Origin: a virus
DNA length: 64,000 nucleotides
Direction: 5' to 3' (one strand)
IMG/VR virus record: IMGVR_UViG_3300045988_131726
A program made the translations under genes and the position numbers. Position 1 is the stretch's first letter; each line of letters begins with the position of its first letter. Shown piece by piece: positions 1,597 through 59,716 of the stretch. The notes beneath the pieces were generated by a model that ran no database searches, was not told the DNA's origin, and saw only the letters and a program-made list of their open reading frames with translations.

Positions 1597-1905
1597 ATGA
1601 AGACAATTTCTTATGAAGAATTCGTTGAGAATTATAGACCTATAAAGAACCAATTTAACCCAGCTGCTGAGTATAATGGTACTTTGTATAGTCCAATAGA
1701 ATTTTCACGAATAGCCTCTGCTGCTTTGCCTAACAGAATACTGTGGACATTAATGAAAGTCAGTTATTTTAACGAAGAAACTTGTGAATGTACTACAGAG
1801 AAATATGTTTACCAAGGATTACAGGAGTCTGGAGATGTCTTAGGATATTTCGTTACTGAAGAACCCTATGAATATGGTAAACCTTTTAATGTTAAGGTAG
1901 AGTAA
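1597..1905 (+). CDS. hypothetical protein
   Basis: 102-aa ORF starting 1 nt after the guaC-like stop. Last plus-strand gene before the strand switch. Confidence 0.5.
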   Translation: MKTISYEEFVENYRPIKNQFNPAAEYNGTLYSPIEFSRIASAALPNRILWTLMKVSYFNEETCECTTEKYVYQGLQESGDVLGYFVTEEPYEYGKPFNVKVE

Positions 1906-1912
1906 TAAAAAT

Positions 1913-1949
1913 CCCCGATAGGTTATACGCCTACCGGGGAATTTTTTTT
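1913..1949. terminator. bidirectional intrinsic terminator between convergent genes
   Basis: Stem ccccgatagg (1913..1922) / cctaccgggg (1930..1939), 9 of 10 bp, 7-nt loop. An A-run lies on the left and T8 on the right (1942..1949). It sits between the stop of 1597..1905 (+) and the stop of 1965..7112 (-). Confidence 0.75.
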
Positions 1950-1964
1950 AGACTTCAGGGAAAA

Positions 1965-4900
1965 TTATCTTTGATTAAAGGTAAATGTATCATAAATATC
2001 AAAGAAGTCCTGAGCTGCATTAAGTCCTGGAGTTAGTCTCGATAAGTAATAAAAAGGTTGAGTTCTATCATTCTTATCTTCCTCCCACCATATTAATCCT
2101 TTGTAATCCTTTCCCATTACTAAGTCCCTAGTTTCATCAACAGTATTTCTAAAGAATCCCATTAAATTAGTTACGTAAGACATGACTGCCATAGGAGAGG
2201 AAATAATATCTGTAGCACTACTAATATCTACAAAGAACGATGCTTCAAGATATGCTCCATAGAGAGCTCTATATAAATTCTGTGTAGCAATATTCGTAGC
2301 CCATCCTGAAAAATCATCATCAGGCTCGTCAGGTACCATAGCTTTTGCTAGCATAGCCATTAGGAATAATCCTATAATAGATTGCAGTTCATAACCTAAT
2401 GCTTTTAACTGAGTTAACCTTAATTGGCAGAAATCTTCAAATGTGAAATCTTGTTTAGACTCATTTGGATGCTGATTAAAATATTCCTCATACTGCTTTC
2501 TAGCAGCTACTTCATTCTGTCCAATATTCTCGCCTGCTAAGTATCCTAAGATAGGCATAGACCTTAAGAGCATTCTACCAAATGCCTTAGATATTTCTAT
2601 ACCTCCTGTAGCAAACTCTCCCATCCCGACTCTAAACCTACCAACATCATATTCATCTATGATAGTATCCTTTTGAAGACCTTTAAATCTAGTTCTTAAT
2701 AATCCAGGAAGCCAGTTACGATACTGCATAATTAATGTACCTGCAATAGTAGTATTGGCAAGATACCTATCCTCTGCAGGCATAACACCTTTCACAGATG
2801 TGGCAGCACTTTGAGCGATAGTTCTAAATCTAATAATATCTTCTCTAGAAAGCTTATCAATAGTCATCTTACCATTCTCATCTACATGTAGTAAATCTGC
2901 AATAGGAATAGCCTTAGGATTTCTTCTTAAGCTGACTAACTTCTTCTTATTCTCATCATAACCCCAAGCATAGAGCATAGATGTTAATACCTTACGATCA
3001 ATATTAGAGTCTGTAGCTTCTAGTAGATAGAAAGCATTTTCTACATTAAATATTCTATTAGTCTTATTTGCAGAAAGTTCAAGAGCTCTTTTCTTCCAGA
3101 CATCTTCATTACCTATATGAAAGAATGATATTGCTCCATAATATTTAGTAGGATCCTGTTTCTTAAGTTCATTAGACTTCCTAGTAGACTCTTTAGTATA
3201 ATACTTACCTTCTATCTCAACCATTTTGAAGTTAAGCATTGTCTGAGCAAAATTTCGAAATCCCAAGATAGGTTTAAATCCTAATGTACTTAAAGAAGAC
3301 CATTGAACTACCTTTTTAGCTAACTTACCCCAACTATAAGTTTTACCCATGAAGGTGAAAGGTTTACCGGTCTCTTGAATAGACTTACCATATACATAGA
3401 GATCTATGAATTTCTCTAATACTGAGACATCATCTATGGATAAGCCTAGAGCTGTGCTTACCTTACCTACCCATTTATCCATATTAGGAATATTATCCTC
3501 AACAAAGACCTTAGCTTCATTGGTTTTAGCATGATAAAGCAGTAGCTGTGCATTAGCTTCAATTTCCTTCATGTGCTTATATGTATACACAGATTGGGCC
3601 ATAAGAAGTAACACTCTTGAGAGATCGTATGATTTATGTCTCAGACCTTTTTCCTCAGCTATCTTACGAAGTTCATTGTATCTTGCTGCTCGCCATTCCT
3701 CAGTATCCCTAGAAAGATTAGGATTAATAGCAGCTTCTGCTCTTGCAATATCTGCAGAAGTTAAGTTATCTTTAAGGGGATCTATAAAGAATAATGGTAC
3801 ATGTTTAATAGGATTACCAGCATAATCTAAGCCAGATGTTTCTTCCTTACTCTTATAAACTACATCTGATTCATCTCGGGTTTCTAAAGCTCCTAGAGTT
3901 ATAGACCTAAGATCTGACAAAGCTCCAATACCATTCTTAAAGATGGAGTCCATAAGATCATTTCTTACATTAGCAATAAACTTCTGACTAATCTTACGAC
4001 CTGTGATATTCTCAAATTCTACATTAAAGTTCACATACATATTATAGTAGTCTACCAGAGGTTTAATATCCTTAATCTTGTTGAATTCCTCACTATAATA
4101 ATTAGGATTCTCCACTCGGTATTTATCTCTGATAAACATATTATATTTATGAAAGACTGCTTTCTTATTATAACTTAAGTCATTAGCTTTACGCCATGCT
4201 AAGTATCTTCTCTCCTCACGTTCTTCTGCAGAGGTTCCTTTAGCATTCTCTATACGAGTTAGCCATTCAGCTTTAGCCTTATTAAAATCCTCTAATGCTT
4301 TACCTGTATACCTATAGCCACCCTTAGGATCACGCTCAATTTGATAGTTATTCAAAAAGAATGTTATTGAACGACTGCTATATGTCTGAGCTTTCTCTAA
4401 GTCTTTATAAAACTTACTAGAATACTTATTAATAAGTTTACCTGTTGAGGTATCTACGATCATATTAAAAGCATCCTGTAGAGTTTTATTATTAGCCTTT
4501 GCCCATTCTTGAAGAGCTTCTGTGTGAACTTTAATCTTCTCATGAGCTTTCTCAAGTTGTTCGTAGATATTTGCTTGTGCACCTTTCAAAAGTTTAGAGA
4601 ATGCTCTAAATATAGGATGTGCTATTTCACTTACTTTACTAAACCAACCTGCCCACCAGCCTACATGACTACCAGGCTGGGTAATATCTTCTCCTGTAGT
4701 AGCTAACAGCATATCTACAGGCTTCTGACTAAGGAGATTTCTAATAAATAATACCTCTCTCAAGGCTTTACCTAGCTGCATTCGGACATTAAGATCATCT
4801 TCCAAATTAATTAAATCTACTGACCCTTGAAAGAAATCTAGATATACATCAGATCTTTGCTTAAGCTCAAGTATCTCATTAGCTGTGAGAGATCCAGGTT

Positions 4901-9499: not shown

Positions 9500-10412
9500 C
9501 AATAATCTCTTATACTTTCATATAAGTTTAGACTATATCTTCACTACTAATAGTAGTGTTCTGCATTTCAGGCTCTAAAGCCCTACCCAAAGATTCTTTA
9601 TCATATAATGATCTAGATCTTTGACTTAAGTCGTATGTAATTTTATGTATCATACATGGAACTTCTGATACAAATGGTTTGACAATTTCAAGAAATTTAA
9701 TACCTTCTTTAGTACCACAGCATAAAGAATAAGTACCTCTACCTTCTGATATAGGATAGAAAGAAATATTCCATTCTTCCTTAAAGAAATTTATTACATT
9801 CTGAATGGTTTCTTTATCCTCACATAGGGATATTCTTATATAGAATCCATGGCATTTACCTTTAGTAATTCGATAATTGATACATCCATCATCCATATAC
9901 CAGATAGCAATACCTCTTGCATCTAACCTATTTAGAAGACGTCTATTACCAAGATACTTCTTAGGCTTATAAAATATCCTCCTAAGCAATTTAATGAAAG
10001 TTGTTATTCCTAATTGAGTATATAAAACTTTTTGACCAGTATTATATCCGCATGTACTAACATATTCATGTATTCCATTATTACGAATACCCGCATTATT
10101 AAGTTGCTTAACTTTCCACTCTAAATAATCTCTCTGTGCCTCAGAATGAGATAATTTAAATACATTATTATTACTAATAGTTCCATCTCCTAGTAATAAT
10201 GCAATTAATAAATTTCTTGAATCTTTATTTAACTTAGTTTTCATACGCTTTGTTATCCATTAAGGAAACGTTATTTAAGTATTAGTCGTTGAGCCTTCCC
10301 CATATGGGGCTTGGCTGCGGATTGCCCAATTCTAAACATTGTTACACTTCGGTAGTTTAGACTCTAAGGGGGTCCCCGCAATTAACAGAATTTTACTCGA
10401 ACCATGATATTA
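9500..10412 (-). mobile_element. group I self-splicing intron (913 nt) carrying a LAGLIDADG homing endonuclease ORF
   Basis: P1: exon ctcggaU (10419..10413) pairs with gttcgag (10402..10396), with a terminal U.G wobble. P10: exon-2 tatgatatt (9499..9491) pairs with aatatcatg (10411..10403), 9 bp. P7-like pair acgacta (approx 10283..10289) / tagtc (within 9530..9545). A P9 hairpin cttata-tgaaag-tataag follows, and the intron ends in G at 9500. Confidence 0.8.
9528..10244 (-). CDS. LAGLIDADG homing endonuclease (double-motif, intron-encoded)
   Basis: 238 aa with two LAGLIDADG-type motifs (LLIALLLGDGTI and IAIWYMDDGC). It lies entirely inside the intron. Its last codons (EDIV-stop) are the P7 3' strand of the ribozyme core. 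Confidence 0.85.
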   Translation of the reverse strand: MKTKLNKDSRNLLIALLLGDGTISNNNVFKLSHSEAQRDYLEWKVKQLNNAGIRNNGIHEYVSTCGYNTGQKVLYTQLGITTFIKLLRRIFYKPKKYLGNRRLLNRLDARGIAIWYMDDGCINYRITKGKCHGFYIRISLCEDKETIQNVINFFKEEWNISFYPISEGRGTYSLCCGTKEGIKFLEIVKPFVSEVPCMIHKITYDLSQRSRSLYDKESLGRALEPEMQNTTISSEDIV

Positions 10413-13400
10413 ATCCGAGCCTGCTTTAGCAACAATCTCTGTAGGCAGAACTATAATATCACCAGCAGCTTCAGGGAGGAAATCTTTAACAACAATAGTT
10501 TCTATTGAGCTAAGTCCCTGTGTAGGGATACGGAATCCTATAAGCTGTAGCAACTCAGGAGGTACTTTACCTACCTTTGTAATACCCTTAAACGGTGAGG
10601 GAAGATATACTTCCATAGATGTAATCTTAGGCTTACCATCTACATATTTTACTACGAAGTCTAAGTCCGAAGATTTATACTTACCTTCATTATATGTACG
10701 GCTTGCCTTAGTTTCCCACATGGTCGAAGGCACCTGGAATGCTGCTGTACCATGACGTTTCTGAGAAGTAGTCATACTTGCAGCTCTGCTCATAAGGATG
10801 CTCTCAATCTTCTCACGTGTAGGAAGAATATCTATATTAGTAGTACCATCATCAAGATTATCTAAGAGTTCTATAGCAGTAATGTAATTATCCGCTAATC
10901 CCCTTTCAATAGCTTCTCGGCGTAGAGAATTAACAAGACTTACAATACCCTCTTCAGAAATCTTCCATCCCTTCTTAGTTGCTACAAGACCTAACTCTTT
11001 AACAAGTTGATCTCTACCTATAGCAATACGTTGATTATTCAGACTAATATACTCCTCAGCTAAAGCTTTAACTTTAGGAGCATTCTCTCCAAAGTGTTCA
11101 CTGATCTCACCCGCATCAAAGAGACCATTAAGAATCTGTACCATCATCTGAGTACCAGTAACTACATCATGGTGTTTATGTTCACCAGTGTCTACTTGAA
11201 TACCCCAATATTCCCAATAAGTATCTTGAGTAAGAAGATCTAAAGGCCCAGTATAATTACCTTCAGTATCTACCAAGAAGTTACCTTCTTTATCGTAGAA
11301 GTCATTAAAAGGATGCTCTGTATTTGTAACTAATACACCTTCCTCATTAGTAACCGAATTAGTCTTAGTAGTTACACCTTTATTAGCTGAATAGTGTACG
11401 GCTACACTAACCTGATTCTTAATCATTAGTTCGTGAAGCTTAGAGAGGTTAGTATCTCCTAAAGCCTTCAGGACAGAAGGTATTAGAGGCATCAATGAGA
11501 GCTTATAGAAAGATGGTTTAAATCCTTCAACATTAGCTAAAGGACCAAAGTGCTGAGGTTTTAAGGAATTAAATACTTGAGAACCCCAGCTGCCACGAGT
11601 TAAAGGAGATTTATTACCATCAAAGTCTACAAATACTCTCTCCTCAACAGGAACTCCTGCTCTTTCTTGTACTTCCCATTGATAAAGCTTTTCAGAATCA
11701 AGATTCCAATCCCCTACTCTAACTTTGAATTCTCGGTAAGCATCTAAAGAAATCATTCCAAAACCGTCACCCTCAGTCATATCTGCATAAGGAGCACTAT
11801 TAAGACCCAACTTATCCGCATTCTTAATAAGAGCTTCTGTCATCATATCCTCAAAAGACTTACTCTTATCAGAGTGCTCATAAGCTTTAAGAACATCATT
11901 GCGAAGTGCCTTATATTTATTATTCTCAGCATCTACAATCTCAGCAATCTGATATAACTGCTTAGAATAGCTAGGAACATCTGAGAATACAGCAGTTCTA
12001 AGTATAGGCTTACCACTTTCATCAGTAAGATTCTCAGCACCATCCATACGCTTAAAGTCACGTGCTATAGTAGTATTAATACCATCAGATGTTAAGCAGG
12101 TTTTCTTAGAACCCATAGCACCATTGTGGCGTTTGAATTCATCACCTAAAGATTTATAGAATATATTATCTCCATATAATATCTTACTTTGCTCAATATT
12201 ACCGATAGCATAATTTACTACTGCATGGCGTATCCAGCTTATGACGTTAGATTTAGAGTACTGATTAGTAGTAGGATTAGTACTTAGCTTTAGGGACATG
12301 TTCAATACTTGATCGTTAGCTAGTTCTTTAAGACCTCCTAGGTCTATTAGCTTATCATAAGCATTGCTAGTCCAAGTATTAATCATCCTCTCTATACGAG
12401 TAGATAACACATCTCTACCTATAGTATTAAGAACTCTGTCTGCAAAATCATTAGGAGATTCGGCAGTATCTACTAAGAATTCTTTAATCTCATTAGGAGT
12501 TAACAAACTTTCAATTACTGTACCCTTAGTATAGTTTTTGTTAAAATTTGTAAACGCTCTATCCTTGATATGAGATCTGGCAATTTCATCCCATAAGTAG
12601 CCTCTGAAAATATCTATAACTTCTCCACGAGTAGTATTTACATTAATCCAAGTATCTCCATGATCCAGGAATCTCTCTTGACCATTATCGGCAGGTCTCA
12701 TAATATTATCCCTACCTTCCATAGTCATATTAAGGACTGTAGAAAGCTTATCTATAAGCTTCATATCCTTATAATCCGTTCCTGTACCATTAGAATTCTC
12801 TCTATTACCTTCATGTATCAAGATTGATAATTTAGGAGTTCTCCTATCTACAAGAGCTCTATTAAGTAACAAAGAGTGCGTTACGTAAATATTATGAGAA
12901 GGATCTAGATGAGGCATCTCTGAATATAGCTTCTCAGGACTATCTATAACTCTATTAATCTTATTAATTGTCTGATTAATATAACCAGGCTTTTGAAGAT
13001 CATAAATTCTTTCATCTCCAAGTGAAATGTGAGAATTTTCTAGAGTTTCTATACCAAGATCTGATTGTATATCTAAGAAAGCATCTAAGTTCTCATTCTC
13101 TCCATCACGGTTCTCATTTACAATAGGAGTCTTTAAAGATCCCTTGAGTATCTGATAGTAAACCTGCCCTATCTTATCCAAAAATCTCTTAGTATGCAAA
13201 GCTTTTTGAAGAGTCTCAGGATTATTGATATCATAGGTTATTCCTAAGATACGTAAGAACTCTTCGGCATTATCAGCAGTAGGAATACGAGGAAAAGCTT
13301 TCTTAATAGCATCTGCATTATATTGCCAAACTTTATATTTATTGCGACTATAAAATTTGATAATATCAGGGTTACCTTCTAGCAACCACTTAGATAACTG

Positions 13401-36864: not shown

Positions 36865-37650
36865 TTATTCTACTCTGCGATTCAGAGCAATTTGTGTGTT
36901 CAAACTATTCTCCTTATAATCTCGTGTTGCTAATTCAACAGCACGATTTATAATCAATTCCCAAAGCGTAGGTGAAATCTTATCTCCTAGCTGAGCTATA
37001 GTATCTTTATCTACATTAGCTTTACGCTCTCCCATAATGGAAAGGTTTCCGATACTAATCCATTCTTCAGAATCCAGATCTACTAGTATAATAGGTTCTG
37101 GCTCTTTCATATAAGTGTAGATATACTGAAACTCTTTAGCAGTAAGATCTTCATTAGAAACTAAGATTACTTGTCGTACCGTAGTATCCTCATTAATTGT
37201 TTCATCCACACGCCATACTCGTAAGTCTGAAGGTCTCCTAAAAGGATTCCTCATAAGCCTATAGGCTTCATCAATATCTACAGGTTTAACATCTATATTA
37301 CGAGCCCTTAGACTAGGGTCAATAGGACCTTTAATACGCTCAGCTAATAGCTGAAGTACATTAGCATCTAAGTCTATAACATAAGAATTAAGCCCTTCAA
37401 TTTGATTGGGAACAAGTGTTGATATAACAGATGTTCCTGTCAAAATATAACGTGGAAGAAGTGATTTAACAGCTTCTGTACTATCAATGGTATCACCACC
37501 CATAGCACCATTATAATAGCTTGAAACAACCTCTCTATGCGCCTGAGTTAAGAATAATGATATTTCATACTCATTAAGACCTGGTGCAGCTGCACTTAAG
37601 ATATTATCATAATGTAGATTAAATTTCTGAATCAGTTCCGCTGCAGTCAT
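36865..37650 (-). CDS. hypothetical structural protein (261 aa)
   Basis: ORF tiled in the capsid module. Confidence 0.55.
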   Translation of the reverse strand: MTAAELIQKFNLHYDNILSAAAPGLNEYEISLFLTQAHREVVSSYYNGAMGGDTIDSTEAVKSLLPRYILTGTSVISTLVPNQIEGLNSYVIDLDANVLQLLAERIKGPIDPSLRARNIDVKPVDIDEAYRLMRNPFRRPSDLRVWRVDETINEDTTVRQVILVSNEDLTAKEFQYIYTYMKEPEPIILVDLDSEEWISIGNLSIMGERKANVDKDTIAQLGDKISPTLWELIINRAVELATRDYKENSLNTQIALNRRVE

Positions 37651-37658
37651 AATGTAAA

Positions 37659-38657
37659 TTATTTCTTAGAAGCTTTGATCTTAGCCTCAAGCATTAACTT
37701 ATACTCTTGATTCTTGACAGCATTGATATACCTTGCAGCATTAGTAATATTCGGATCATCCATACCTTCACAAAGCGGAGTATTGTCAGCCTTGTAGTAA
37801 AGATCACCACGCTTCTTAATAAGTCCTGCACTAATAGCATCCTTAATCATTACCTTGGTCTCAAGGTAGGGATCTTGTAGAATCTGTACAAAGAGCTTAG
37901 GATTGCTCTGCATATTCTTAAATGCTTGAGCTTGTAGCCAATCAAGAGTACTTGTATCAGATACAGGCTTACCTTCAAGAGTCTCAACTACTAGACGTAG
38001 TACAGGTTTATTCTCAAGGAATTTACCAAGCTCGAAGGATGCCTGCATAGCTACATTCATTTCCTTATTGAGAGTCTTAACCTCTTCTCCCTCTCTGATA
38101 AGCACATACCTATAGGTTGCTTTAGGACTGGTCTTAAGAGTATCAAGACTAGGAGCAATAGTATCTGAATTAGCTAGCAGAATCTTATATTTAATATAAC
38201 CATCAGGGGTAGAAAGATCCAGAATTGTATCCATCTTCCCAAGTCTTACAATAGCATTGTCAGACTCCCAATAGTTATCTTCCTTACGATAGATAGATAG
38301 TGCATTATCTTCAAGACCCATAGCCATTTCTAAGAACTTTTTCTCAGCTTTAGTGAGAGCATTCTTATATGAACCCGACATCAGAAGCGGTAGCGTATAG
38401 ATTTTAACTGCGGTTTCAGCCATACCTCCATAGAGAGCGTGAGTAGGCTTGTCAATATTACCAGTAGGTTTAAGAATACACCGTACAATAACTTTCTCAT
38501 TCTTGAGACAGTTTACTAACGGCTCTTCCTCTACAATGGTAGCTACACCTTTCTTATCTACCTTAGGACCCTTTACAGGTTTAGGTACTTCAACTTTTAC
38601 CTCATCAACTGAGGTGTCAACATCAATATCACCAATATTGCTAAAATTCTTATCCAT
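37659..38657 (-). CDS. hypothetical structural protein (332 aa)
   Basis: ATG start 62 nt after the MCP exon 3 stop, just past the terminator hairpin. Confidence 0.55.
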   Translation of the reverse strand: MDKNFSNIGDIDVDTSVDEVKVEVPKPVKGPKVDKKGVATIVEEEPLVNCLKNEKVIVRCILKPTGNIDKPTHALYGGMAETAVKIYTLPLLMSGSYKNALTKAEKKFLEMAMGLEDNALSIYRKEDNYWESDNAIVRLGKMDTILDLSTPDGYIKYKILLANSDTIAPSLDTLKTSPKATYRYVLIREGEEVKTLNKEMNVAMQASFELGKFLENKPVLRLVVETLEGKPVSDTSTLDWLQAQAFKNMQSNPKLFVQILQDPYLETKVMIKDAISAGLIKKRGDLYYKADNTPLCEGMDDPNITNAARYINAVKNQEYKLMLEAKIKASKK

Positions 38658-38680
38658 AACTTCTCCCTTAATTTAAATGA

Positions 38681-38710
38681 AGGTAAGTGGGATTTGACCC
38701 CCACCTACCT
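38681..38710 (-). terminator. intrinsic terminator/attenuator hairpin after the major capsid gene
   Basis: 11-bp stem aggtaggtggg / cccacttacct (one G.U) with an 8-nt loop. It starts 10 nt after the exon 3 stop and is followed on the minus strand by tcatttaaatt. Confidence 0.6.
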
Positions 38711-38719
38711 AATAATTTA

Positions 38720-38868
38720 TTACTCCGTAAGAATATTCGGAATCAGGCTCATGGTACGAGTCGGATCCAGGATGAAGACACCCAGAGTAGCCATCTTGTG
38801 GATCTGAGCCGAGTCTTCGGGATACGACATGTACGGGTTGTTCATGCCACCCGTGAACGGGTTTCTCA
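38720..38868 (-). CDS. major capsid protein, exon 3 (149 nt, not in the ORF track)
   Basis: It reads (L)RNPFTGGMNNPYMSYPEDSAQIHKMATLGVFILDPTRTMSLIPNILTE-stop in the frame fixed by the P1/P10-defined junction. There is no start codon, hence no ORF call. GC-rich codon usage matches the other MCP exons. Confidence 0.75.
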
Positions 38869-39217
38869 CATTTAAACGTTACTGATATACCGTTACCGTA
38901 TATCATCTACAACTTTCGTTGTAGTTCAGACTATATCTTCACTGACAAATGTCAGGCAAGGCATTTCGGAGCTACTTAGCCCCTACTCCCAAACGGGATA
39001 GTCGTTGAACCTTTAATTATAAATATCATTATAATTACTTGGCTGCTGGTTATCCAATCTTTTCTATTTTCAAACTTTCACGCTTAGTATTGCTACTTAC
39101 GTTGTAGTTAGGAAAGCTCTAAGGAACTTCCAGCAATTAACCTTGTTTTAAAGCCTCTCTTCTGTTCCTGGGTCAGGCTTGTGGGAACTGAGAAATGTGT
39201 AAAGGCTTACGCCGTTA
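38869..39217 (-). ncRNA. ORF-less group I intron (349 nt) in the major capsid gene
   Basis: P1: exon tggggaU (39224..39218) pairs with gttccca (39188..39182), with a terminal U.G. P10: exon-3 tgaga (38868..38864) pairs with tctca (39193..39189). The core shares gcagccaag, aaggYtcaacgacta and a 16-nt identical agtgaagatatagtct (38943..38928) with the polymerase intron. A P9 hairpin ctacaac-gaaa-gttgtag is present, and omega-G is at 38869. Confidence 0.8.
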
Positions 39218-40223
39218 ATCCCCACATATAACCCCGATACTCTTCCTTACCACGAACCTTAGCTAGCTGAATATTAGGCTCCTCAGTAGTACCAATACAC
39301 ATAATATCATAACGGTACGACTCTGCAACACCGCCATTCGGGTGCATGATCTTGTTACGTACCTGATCGTCGTAGAGAGGATTAACATCAATCTGAATGG
39401 TTAGACCATTAGGAGCTTTGTACTCTACAAACTGGAAACCTGCACTCAGGGCATTCTCATGAAGCTTACTTGAAGTCTTTGAAATAATAGCAGGATTAGC
39501 TGCATTGCCACCAAGATACTGGAATACAGTCCATCCAGATACTACATCAAGAACTGCCTTATGGAACTGTACAGCACCACGAGAACCAGTCTCAATAATA
39601 AAGGTACGATCTGAGTAGTCAAGCTTCGACTCTGACAGCTCGAAGAGAGCATCCTCAAGAGTCTTCAGACTAAACTTAGTGTAATAACGAGTATTACCTA
39701 CAGACATCTGAGCACGGATACCATCACCCATCTTAATGACATTACCGGACTTACCAAAGTTCAGATACTCACCGTTCTTATTACGGTTCGAGCGGCCAAA
39801 CATTATAATGTTCGACTTATATTCTGAGAAGGTTTCCTCCAGCTTATAGTCTACATGGTGAATCCATGAATTTGCTACTTGCTTATTACCAGCCTTATCT
39901 ACAAAAGGTATACCAATGGCCAGCTTCTTATCAAGAATATTTCCAGGAACCTTAGTCTGAATACGAATGTGTGACCACTCATTACGCATAGCAGTAGAGC
40001 TAGTATAACGAACATCGCCTACTTCCAGCGACATCGTATCCTCAACAGGAGCATATTCCCAGCTAAACCGCTTACCAGCAACAAGCTGACTTACGGGCAT
40101 ACCATCAAGGACGCCTCCCATAAGTTCTACAGTATAAACTGCATTCGAACCTTCAAGTCTCGGCTGACCCAGAATACGCAGGGGATAAACCTCATTAAGT
40201 TCTCCTACAATTACCTCACCATC
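39218..40223 (-). CDS. major capsid protein, exon 2
   Basis: The track ORF 39207..40226 begins at TTG with no start context. Large GC-enriched ORF following the scaffold-like gene. Its 3' end is set by the P1 pairing at 39218. Its 5' end is set by analogy (omega-G in aaattg at 40224). Confidence 0.7.
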
Positions 40224-40543
40224 CAATTTGTTATCCTAGAGGCTCTTTATCCTCTAGCTCTATAGATTTACTATCTCTATAGTTCGGAGTACATTTTAAT
40301 CCTATTAACATATAGGATCCGGACACTCTTGGAAGAATTATATTCTACGCTTTCTACTTAAATACCTAGCATAGGTTCATCTTCTACTCTCTACACTACC
40401 TATTAATATTATTTAATAGGTTAGCTCGGTATTAGCCAATCTTAATGTAGGACTAAGATAGAGGCCTTCACCGATTTTGCCCAATTTTCAGTATACATTA
40501 CTGTATAAAGCGCCAATTTTAGTAGCTAAGCTACTCTGGGTCT
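40224..40543 (-). ncRNA. putative group I-like intron (about 305-320 nt) in the major capsid gene; 5' boundary uncertain
   Basis: A 300-nt non-coding hairpin-rich gap lies between two same-strand MCP ORFs. It shares attgggcaa and gaaggc with the polymerase intron. The 3' architecture is analogous: ctatagag, P9 hairpin ctagagg-ataaagag-cctctag, then gataacaaattg ending in G. A weak P1 (cgcU/ggcg, 40514..40511) places the 5' splice site after 40544. The alternative site is after 40529. Confidence 0.5.
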
Positions 40544-40906
40544 AGCGAACCAGTCTTCGGGGAAAACAACCTTGAAGGGCTGTCCATTGGCACCAGCAAA
40601 AGTCTCAGTTTCCTCATTATTCTCAAGAACCTGATCACTCATGTCACGAGCCTCAATGATCGGAATATTACGACGCGAGCTGCCAATAACTTCCCATGTA
40701 TACTCATCATCAGTCTCAAAGTACTTAACAGGGAATCTCTGGAGATAACTATCGAGACTCTTGCCACGATGCTGAGCCAGAAGCTGTACCATAATATTAG
40801 TAGCTTTCTGAGGCGCACGACCAAAAATAGCTCCGATGTGGTTATCTCGGGTTAAGCCTTTCCACGAAGTGAAGGCTTTCATTTGAAATTTACCTAATAG
40901 TTGCAT
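40544..40906 (-). CDS. major capsid protein, exon 1 (about 121 codons)
   Basis: ATG ORF 15 nt after the scaffold-like gene. Read-through ends at TAG 40528..40526. The best-guess junction gives ...FPEDWFA|DGEVIVGE..., for a 505-aa three-exon product. Confidence 0.6.
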
Positions 40907-40921
40907 AATTTATTAATTTAA

Positions 40922-42082
40922 TTAAACGTCAATTCTGTCAATGAAGTCATAGGACTCTTCCTCCGGCTCCATATTAAAGTTAACGCTACCATCATCCAAA
41001 GTTCTAGTATTGTTAAGTTTATGCTCTAATTCTCGTAGGGCACCTTTCTTAGCTTTAGTTAGCTTCTGATTAACTAGCTTATCAATATTCTTAAAACCAT
41101 CTGTAAGCGTATACATTAGAGAAAGGTAGTATTGAGCATCTAAAGAATTCTCTCTAATATACTTCTGAATAGGAGTCATAATATGACCATCCTCATCTTT
41201 GTAACTAGCCTTGGTCATATTATTATAGACCTTCTCACGAGTACCCTTATCAAGATTAATACCATCAAAAGGTTTATCAGTATTTAGCACCTTAGCTTTA
41301 AACTCTTTAAGCTGTTTCTCCTGAGCAGCTTTTGCAGCAGCAGCAGCAGCTTTTCTTTCCTCAACAATAGAATGATACTCTTCTTTATAGAAGTCTAAAC
41401 AGCTTTCAAGAGCTGCCTTAGCATCTTCAATATCTGTACCAGCATTAATAGATCTCTCTACTTCCCGCTGAGCACGTTCTTTCTTAAATCCACGATTAAT
41501 ATAATCGTTGTATATAATCTTCTTACGAAGTGTTTCTGCATTGTCAGATTCAGCTTCAAGCTCCTCTTCAGATATATCAGAGAGATACTGAATAGCTCCC
41601 TCATAACGCTGAATAACATCAGGTTCAACACCGGCATTAAGCATATCTCGGATACGTTTCTGCTCAGCATCTAGACCTGCATCTATCTGCTTCTTTAAAG
41701 CTGCAGCAAATGATTCACTATCCTTTATCTCCTTGATTTCATCTTCGCTTAAGTCCGGGAAAATACCATCTTCGTAACAAGCCAGTGCGACGGAAGCAAG
41801 TATTGGTGTATTGGGAGAAGTTTTATCGCTAGGATCCTTGTCCTTAGTGATATCTTCCCCGCTTAAGCTAGGATCAGGATCTTCTCCTTCTCCATCCTCA
41901 GCACCTCCGCCCTCTTGCTTACCCTTAAAAATCCCATTAGGATCAGGGTCCGCATCTGTACTGGTATCTGTAGGAGGATCGTTACTAGGAGCTCCAAACT
42001 CCAGATCTTCCTCCTCAATTTTAATATCAATAGCGTCGTCTCCGAACGCATTGAGTAAATCCATTGATAAAGTTTCTTCCAT
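40922..42082 (-). CDS. putative scaffolding protein (acidic, coiled-coil)
   Basis: 386 aa with a very acidic low-complexity N-terminal third and Ala/Lys/Glu-rich helices (ERKAAAAAAKAAQEKQLKEFKAK). It lies immediately upstream of the MCP and has its own promoter. Confidence 0.5.
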   Translation of the reverse strand: MEETLSMDLLNAFGDDAIDIKIEEEDLEFGAPSNDPPTDTSTDADPDPNGIFKGKQEGGGAEDGEGEDPDPSLSGEDITKDKDPSDKTSPNTPILASVALACYEDGIFPDLSEDEIKEIKDSESFAAALKKQIDAGLDAEQKRIRDMLNAGVEPDVIQRYEGAIQYLSDISEEELEAESDNAETLRKKIIYNDYINRGFKKERAQREVERSINAGTDIEDAKAALESCLDFYKEEYHSIVEERKAAAAAAKAAQEKQLKEFKAKVLNTDKPFDGINLDKGTREKVYNNMTKASYKDEDGHIMTPIQKYIRENSLDAQYYLSLMYTLTDGFKNIDKLVNQKLTKAKKGALRELEHKLNNTRTLDDGSVNFNMEPEEESYDFIDRIDV

Positions 42083-42135
42083 ACTTCTCCAAAATTTTTA
42101 ATCTTAATTAGTTAATCTCTTTACATAGATTAATG

Positions 42136-59627: not shown

Positions 59628-59645
59628 AAAGTTAAAATTAATTAG

Positions 59646-59716
59646 CTGGGATAGAAGGAATCGAACCTTCTCCGAGTGGTTAATGACCACTTACTCTACC
59701 TTCGAGCTATATCCCA
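59646..59716 (-). tRNA. tRNA gene with a non-canonical anticodon loop (nominal anticodon AUU)
   Basis: The cloverleaf can be read. Acceptor TGGGATA/TATCCCA; D arm GCTC-GAAGGTA-GAGT; anticodon stem AGTGG/CCACT with loop TCATTAA; T arm GAAGG-TTCGATT-CCTTC; discriminator G; no encoded CCA. Position 33 is C rather than U. Confidence 0.7.

Follow-up and report, generated by a model that had tools for sequence, protein, structure and literature searches.

A divergent group I intron without an endonuclease gene splits the capsid gene of a crAss-like phage

The major capsid protein (MCP) gene of a crAss-like phage, contained in a 64,000-nt stretch of IMG/VR record IMGVR_UViG_3300045988_131726 (hereafter the window), was found to be interrupted by a 320-nt insertion that has exact boundaries, contains a group I core supported by covariation, belongs to a family of related phage introns and, when excised, restores the reading frame of intron-less homologues. 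The insertion is very probably a functional self-splicing group I intron, although its catalysis and its removal from the transcript during infection are inferred from the sequence. It is ordinary phage biology and no new kind of element.

Group I introns in MCP genes of crAss-like phages were already known. For the Delta and Zeta groups, Yutin et al. 2021 (PMC7886860) described group I introns that break the MCP gene into several pieces and that were found through endonuclease domains. Split MCPs annotated with a "homing endonuclease" are also already present in the GenBank records of phages cr111_1 and cr128_1. The window intron was found to share the host gene, the phage order and the intron class with the introns of PMC7886860, but it lies in a Steigviridae genome and contains no endonuclease ORF, and it would therefore be missed by a protein-domain search. 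What is added here is a Steigviridae case, an intron without an endonuclease gene and its membership of a widespread family that the Rfam group I model RF00028 misses. Endonuclease-less introns like this one escape both protein-domain screens and RF00028; the case adds to the intron load of crAss-like phages and provides an example of endonuclease decay and of related introns at neighbouring sites.

The split capsid gene and the boundaries of the insertion

The window was found to contain a crAss-like phage genome whose nearest relative is the uncultured phage cr108_1 (Crassvirales, Steigviridae, Asinivirinae), with collinear blocks of ~77-97% nucleotide identity. The Steigviridae are presumably the "beta" group in the naming of Yutin. 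The MCP gene was present in the ORF list as three pieces of 126 aa, 339 aa and a 49-aa tail, preceded by a 386-aa gene (Table 1). The first two had been described by the first-pass annotation as an ATG-started and a TTG-started ORF on the same strand, and both were located on the minus strand with the coordinates described. Both pieces matched the major-head-protein profile PHROG 11589, residues 4-121 of the first being aligned to profile positions 5-121 and residues 2-337 of the second to positions 122-450, so that the two abut exactly in the profile (121 to 122). The MCP gene of cr108_1 was found to contain no interruption and encodes 499 aa. Removal of both introns from the window gene yielded an in-frame MCP of 505 aa with intact exons, and the gene is to be annotated as one three-exon gene of 505 aa rather than as fragments.

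In blastn against the cr108_1 MCP gene, window position 40544 corresponded to position 1939 and window position 40223 to position 1940 of the cr108_1 locus (L001). Since these positions are adjacent and the boundary bases cannot slide, the insertion comprises exactly positions 40543..40224. The flanks were found to read GGUUCGCU^AGACCC...CAAAUUG^GAUGGU in the window (splice positions are marked ^) versus GGTTCGCTGATGGC in cr108_1. The insertion that had been placed at 40224..40544 is thus real, but position 40544 is the last base of the exon; the proposed split after the N-terminal 121 codons agrees with an exon 1 of 363 nt. Exon 1 ends in U and the insertion ends in G (omega-G), as in group I introns, and a terminal ...UG was common to most members of the 44-sequence family alignment described below.

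The previously favoured junction FPEDWFA^DGEVIVGE was found to be identical to that given by the intron-less homologues cr108_1 and crAss001. The MCP of crAss001 forms a single chain in the virion structure (PDB 7QOF), contains the identical FPEDWFADGEVIVG and is continuous through this junction. A second candidate junction, ARPRVA^DGEV with the 5' site after 40529, has to be discarded, since FPEDWFADGEV is uninterrupted in the intron-less homologues. The alignment of MCP homologues across the junction, which had been proposed as a check, contained contiguous flanks and no equivalent of the interrupting sequence in the intron-less MCPs.

On the standard group I pathway, the pre-mRNA would fold into the P1-P9.1 core, the guide UUGGCG would pair with the exon end CGCU^AG, and a free guanosine bound in P7 would attack after U40544; the terminal G40224 would then occupy the same site while the 3' OH of exon 1 attacks the 3' splice site. 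Ligation would join ...UUC GCU to GAU GGU..., the spliced junction would read ...UGGUUCGCU^GAUGGUGAG... and the capsid protein would span it as ...VVFPEDWFADGEVIVGELNEVYPLR... (FPEDWFADGEVIVGELNEVYPLR). The second intron (39217..38869) would also be removed, which would give the mRNA for the 505-aa capsid protein. Translation would be halted by the UAG located five codons into the first intron, before ribosomes could disrupt the ribozyme fold.

Expression without splicing, in which the 126-aa ORF and the ~339-aa ORF with its UUG start would yield separate proteins and the 320 nt would be a structured intergenic spacer, is considered highly improbable. The first ORF does contain its own stop codon, and the UUG at 40226 is preceded by AGGA at a distance of 7 nt. 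The tail AGGAUAACAAAUUG, however, is conserved across the intron family whatever the host gene, and AGGA-N7-UUG, being part of this family-wide tail, is a feature of the intron and not a ribosome-binding site for the MCP. The homologues, including the crAss001 capsid protein, are single chains through the junction, the supposed spacer carries a covariation-supported ribozyme core, and neither a terminator nor an excess of promoter-like sites was found, which also counts against a spacer.

A MITE or IS fragment, a group II intron, an intein, stop-codon read-through and translational bypassing are generic alternatives for any split phage gene; nothing specific was found to favour one of them here, and their joint probability is considered negligible. 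Recoded stop codons and inteins are indeed used by crAss-like phages (PMC7886860). The length of 320 nt (3n+2) shifts the frame between the first two exons and so rules out an intein as well as read-through; a repeat scan found no terminal inverted repeats and no target-site duplications at the boundaries, and a group II intron had no Rfam match in the insertion. The gap bypassed in T4 gene 60 is ~50 nt, and the 320 nt of the insertion are far longer.

The identity to cr108_1 over 37600..42100 was mosaic (78-100% per 100 nt), and the region around the 320-nt intron (40700..40181) was among those with the lowest identity (78-79%). An exon co-conversion tract around the introns was considered as a possible cause but is indistinguishable from the general patchiness of the identity to cr108_1. 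The only tRNA of the window was found to be a tRNA-Asn with the unusual anticodon ATT (ARAGORN) at 59645..59716 on the minus strand, with an Rfam tRNA score of 56 bits. A weak match to Hammerhead_HH9 at 38559..38614 on the minus strand (17.3 bits, E = 0.83, far under threshold) falls within the downstream gene's coding sequence and is probably due to chance.

Table 1. Positions of the capsid gene parts, introns and intron structural elements in the window (RNA letters are read on the minus strand; pairing percentages refer to the 44-member alignment)
Feature	Positions	Strand	Remarks
Third group I intron	10164..10444	-	RF00028 53.6 bits; in the polymerase gene according to the first-pass annotation
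MCP exon 3	38720..38868	-	stop codon included
MCP 49-aa tail piece	38869..38720	-	
Second MCP intron	38869..39217	-	RF00028 81.5 bits; GGGGAU^UAACGG...AAAUG^UGAGAAAC
MCP exon 2	39218..40223	-	starts GAU GGU GAG
MCP ORF2, 339 aa	40226..39207	-	TTG start
Group I intron, 320 nt, no endonuclease ORF	40224..40543	-	starts AGACCC, ends ...CAAAUUG; terminal G = 40224
P9.1 hairpin and conserved 3' tail	40224..40257	-	CUAGAGGauaaagagCCUCUAG, then GAUAACAAAUUG; 99% paired
P9 hairpin	40260..40282	-	CUAUAGAgauaguaaaUCUAUAG; inverted repeat; 96-99% paired
J8/7 and P7 3' strand	40286..40298	-	UAAAAUG and UACUCC
P8 hairpin	40299..40318	-	AUCCUAUauguuaAUAGGAU; perfect inverted repeat
P7.1 enclosing P7.1a	40332..40384	-	GAAGA/UCUUC enclosing CUAUGC/GCGUAG; conserved internal loop UGAA/AAUAUAAU
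Vestige of GIY-YIG homing endonuclease ORF	40358..40372	-	AUG CUA GGU AUU UAA (MLGI, then stop)
P7 5' strand	40385..40391	-	G-[A bulge]-GAGUA; partner UACUCC 40291..40286
P6 and P6a	40395..40425	-	P6 GC/GU; P6a CCUAUUAA/UUAAUAGG
P4-P5-P5a domain	40426..40474	-	UCGGUG...GCC...AUCUUA/UAAGAU...GGC...UACCGA
P3 5' strand	40479..40484	-	UUGGGC; partner GUCCGG 40324..40319
P2 hairpin, 16-nt stem-loop	40492..40507	-	UAUACaguaauGUAUA; present also in Twort orf142 intron 2
Internal guide sequence, intron nt 28-33	40511..40516	-	UUGGCG; P1 with exon CGCU (40547..40544) and intron AG (40543..40542)
In-frame UAG stop, 5 codons into the intron	40526..40528	-	within P1-loop hairpin GUAGCuuaGCUAC (40534..40522)
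MCP ORF1, 126 aa	40906..40526	-	ATG start
MCP exon 1, 363 nt = 121 codons	40544..40906	-	ends ...UGG UUC GCU; U at 40544 = 5' splice-site U
386-aa gene	40922..42082	-	precedes the MCP gene

Structure of the intron RNA

A group I structure was written from the window sequence and compared with an alignment of 44 endonuclease-free family members (MAFFT). Standard pairs were formed in 89.0% of the cells versus 68.5% in shuffled alignments. Because the alignment contains three near-identical copies and several close pairs, such counts exceed the true number of independent events. Changes on both sides were found in 56 of the 74 pairs, and the covariation score was 0.506 versus 0.169 for the shuffled alignments and 0.08-0.15 when partners were slid by 1-3 columns. 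The observed value was matched by 0 of 500 shuffles on any of five measures. The group I core consisting of P3, P4, P5, P6, P7, the P7.1 arm, P9 and P9.1 is supported by covariation.

P1 was found by direct reading to contain six base pairs, four with the exon and two within the intron, with a U.G wobble at the splice site; the 4-bp P1 (cgcU/ggcg) proposed earlier was correct and is extended by the two intron-side pairs. P10 was weak (~3 bp). The P3 helix was paired in 96% of the cells, with changes on both sides in five of its six pairs, followed by P4 with 98%, P6 with 98% and P6a with 93%, both-side changes being present in every pair of P6 and P6a. P7, which is presumed to be the guanosine-binding helix, was paired in 100% of the cells, with covariation in three of six pairs and with the G-C pair next to the bulge invariant in all 44 members; it crosses P3 to form the group I pseudoknot. 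The additional arm (intron nt 160-212) contained P7.1, paired in 100% of the cells, and P7.1a, paired in 89%, both with covariation. P8 was paired in only 47% of the cells, MAFFT having misaligned that segment; when each sequence was folded separately, nearly all members were predicted to end this segment in a hairpin, whose sequence varied between members, which supports P8.

The window copy was found to retain all 57 invariant columns of the alignment. De novo folding, which had also been suggested, gave a fold better than that of shuffled controls (z = -3.7, with 0 of 100 shuffles as good), and the minimum-free-energy fold of the window intron by itself recovered P4/P5/P5a, P6a, P7.1/P7.1a, P8, P9 and P9.1. 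The helices of the RF00028 alignment coincided with those derived independently. Several labels of the first-pass annotation change accordingly. Its three quoted hairpins are all perfect inverted repeats, and a further one is P9; the ctatagag called P7-like belongs to P9, the true P7 being GAGAGUA/UACUCC (40391..40385 with 40291..40286), and the hairpin called P9 is P9.1. The suspicion of a reduced or unusual variant does not hold, as P1-P9.1 are all present together with a P7.1/P7.1a arm typical of subgroup IA.

If the intron had decayed and no longer spliced on its own, the phage would be defective and its capsid gene a pseudogene, unless a helper protein or a trans-acting factor assisted splicing. 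The endonuclease gene is reduced to a four-codon vestige, P1 and P10 are weak and the Rfam score lies under the threshold, as decay would predict; yet 57 of 57 invariant family columns are kept and every core helix is intact. Three further contigs from metagenomes (L012, L020 and L125) were found to carry near-identical copies at the same MCP site, and the differences of these from the window copy affect loops or leave pairing intact, as with U.G to U-A in P3 of L020. The same arrangement is thus present in several independent assemblies, with the MCP exons intact and in frame. Loss of the endonuclease leaves the ribozymes of other phage introns unimpaired, which likewise counts against decay. 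Decay is accordingly considered quite improbable, and a functional ribozyme remains the preferred reading.

Two further sequence relationships were rejected. A complementarity of 11 bp (10 Watson-Crick and one G.U) between intron nt 2-12 (40532..40542) and exon 2 (40166..40176) was at chance level; the exon 2 partner lies ~48 nt beyond the 3' splice site. A match of 31 nt (90%) between the P6a region 40385..40415 and positions 3098..3126 of the cr108_1 locus (L001) is A/T-rich and probably due to chance; the matched positions lie just downstream of the cr108_1 MCP stop.

Intron class, detection and relation to known introns

The group I assignment made earlier is supported by the P3-P8 core, the P3/P7 pseudoknot, the U and G splice-site bases and the covariation. 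Extra helices were found between the 5' strand of P7 and the 3' strand of P3, and the insertion is for this reason placed in subgroup IA; they form one nested arm and not two hairpins, and the structural model points to an IA-type group I intron without distinguishing between IA1, IA2 and IA3.

The search with a group I covariance model, likewise suggested at the outset, gave a full-length RF00028 alignment (model positions 1-253, window positions 40533..40260) but a score of only 23.4 bits (E = 0.0037 in a permissive 2.5-kb search), under the gathering score of 50 bits. The insertion was hence not reported at the Rfam gathering threshold, at which only the other two introns of the window were found (81.5 and 53.6 bits), and the earlier description of the insertion as divergent was well founded. 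RF00028 also missed the family copies of cr128_1, phiCD211, PT1-1, bajarodcaudo virus and two IMG/VR loci (at E <= 1-10). The sub-threshold score reflects the coverage of the model and not a structural defect: the MCP intron is full-sized, has the canonical architecture and belongs to a sequence family outside the coverage of RF00028. According to a survey of Bastillevirinae introns (PMC11878797), group I introns of phages are under-represented in the Rfam and GISSD models, and subgroup IA2 is heterogeneous; the MCP intron family exemplifies the same model gap in different phages and hosts.

The second MCP intron was found to belong to a different group I family, with no blastn or nhmmer similarity to the 320-nt intron, and a profile of the family found neither the other two window introns nor the Twort introns. 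The motifs attgggcaa and gaaggc, said to be shared with the polymerase intron, do occur there, but in non-equivalent structural parts, and the sharing is coincidental.

A close structural counterpart is intron 2 of orf142 of the Staphylococcus phage Twort, the ribozyme of PDB 1Y0Q, which carries the label of subgroup IA2; the ribozyme sequence used was confirmed by blastn (98.6%). Both introns contain the 16-nt P2 stem-loop UAUACAGUAAUGUAUA, the GAGCUAA junction of P4' and P6, GAAC after the 3' strand of P7, and P9 and P9.1 followed by the 3' tail ...UAACAnAAUUG, and both contain extra structure between P7 and P3', the hallmark of subgroup IA. The P7 helix reads GACUA/UAGUC in Twort, GAGUA/UACUC in the window intron and GCAUA/UAUGC in most of the family, and J8/7 also differs between Twort and the window intron. 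The Twort intron contains two side-by-side hairpins, P7.1 and P7.2, whereas the window intron contains one P7.1/P7.1a arm with a conserved internal loop, and the Twort introns score 64-101 bits with RF00028 versus ~23 bits for the window intron.

The td intron of phage T4 belongs to subgroup IA and carries I-TevI, a GIY-YIG homing endonuclease. Relatives of the window intron similarly carry a GIY-YIG ORF in a peripheral loop, and an in-frame stop is present soon after the 5' splice site in both td and the window intron; in the latter, however, the endonuclease ORF is cut down to MLGI and a stop codon. To our knowledge, the window intron has no detectable sequence relationship to the T4 introns.

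Spread of the family and loss of the endonuclease gene

The blastn search of the insertion against GenBank phages matched 196 records. The crAss-like matches were found in bajarodcaudo virus 1, cr111_1 and cr128_1 (71-80% identity, E down to 1e-24), and related inserts in other phages were matched at E = 1e-24 to 2e-23; matches of the family were present also in many phages of Staphylococcus, Clostridium, Clostridioides and Bacillus. In the annotated records that were examined, matches were located within split MCP, tape measure and terminase genes, with one further match between exonuclease V and Dda-like helicase genes, and homing-endonuclease ORFs were found beside or inside several of the copies. 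A conserved 23-nt motif of the family was present in at least 119 IMG/VR stretches. Many split-gene annotations, including those of terminase, tape measure, helicase and capsid genes, would be repaired by a covariance model built for the family.

A tblastn search of the cr108_1 MCP on crAss relatives located family introns at residues 16/17, 117/118, 144/145 and ~284-288, the site of the window intron being 115/116 in cr108_1 numbering. For a comparison of guides, the junctions of three other MCP sites were fixed by protein homology. The window intron, with exon end and intron start CGCU^AG, was found to contain the guide UUGGCG, followed by the cr111_1 intron with GCGGU^A and guide UGCCGC, the cr128_1 intron and bajarodcaudo intron 1 with AAGGGU^U and guide AAGCCCUU (GGCCCUU in bajarodcaudo), and bajarodcaudo intron 2 with GGU^A and guide UGCC. 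All compared MCP introns followed an exonic U and ended in G, and the guide was found to covary with the 5' exon at four independent insertion sites while the U.G wobble was kept.

No ORF of at least 40 aa, and hence no intron-encoded endonuclease, was found in 40224..40543. The short reading frame MLGI, ended by a stop codon, was found to start at the same AUG of P7.1a as the full endonuclease ORFs of relatives, and the window intron is therefore a derivative from which the endonuclease gene was deleted. In these relatives, the ORF in the P7.1a loop was found to encode a GIY-YIG domain and a helix-turn-helix. Intron 2 of bajarodcaudo virus contained a 198-aa ORF with a Pfam GIY-YIG domain, starting at the AUG in the 5' strand of P7.1a (MIGYIYKV...), and in cr111_1 a 221-aa ORF started at the same AUG (MVKLGKIYLISN...), with an N-terminus that appeared GIY-like when read by eye. 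Vestiges at this AUG were also present in other endonuclease-free members, namely MLGIIYI before a stop in L020 and MNGFIYII... before a stop in L083. By this comparison of reading frames, the window intron appears to descend from a mobile intron with a GIY-YIG gene that has since been lost. At this cr111_1 locus (L002 2093..2758, NC_055880), the annotated 176-aa "homing endonuclease" appears to be N-terminally truncated relative to the 221-aa ORF.

The nearest relative of the window intron was found to be bajarodcaudo intron 2 (L003 1450..2330, PQ006092), with 75-80% identity. It is inserted 6 nt downstream of the window site, after GAU GGU and not after GCU, and contains a different, re-matched guide. 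Ordinary homing would not produce a 6-nt shift with a re-matched guide. One tentative reading, which we consider unlikely, is that the family constitutes a distinct, unmodelled IA-type lineage with a nested P7.1/P7.1a arm, an invariant UGAA/UAGAAUAUAAU loop, changes in P7 and J8/7, and a GIY-YIG gene whose start lies in P7.1a. Such a lineage would span phages of Bacteroidota (crAss-like) and of Bacillota (Staphylococcus, Clostridium, Clostridioides and Bacillus) and would have colonised at least five crAss MCP sites; if this were true, the 6-nt shift would point to reverse splicing or to another homing-independent mode of spread to new sites, and not to ordinary homing driven by an endonuclease.

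In the tape measure gene of the Clostridium phage phiCD211 (L005 1385..1958), the family intron was found to end at position 1669, followed after ~20-25 nt by a second, unrelated group I intron at 1694..1958 (RF00028 41.7 bits). The two phiCD211 introns appear to be separated by a micro-exon.
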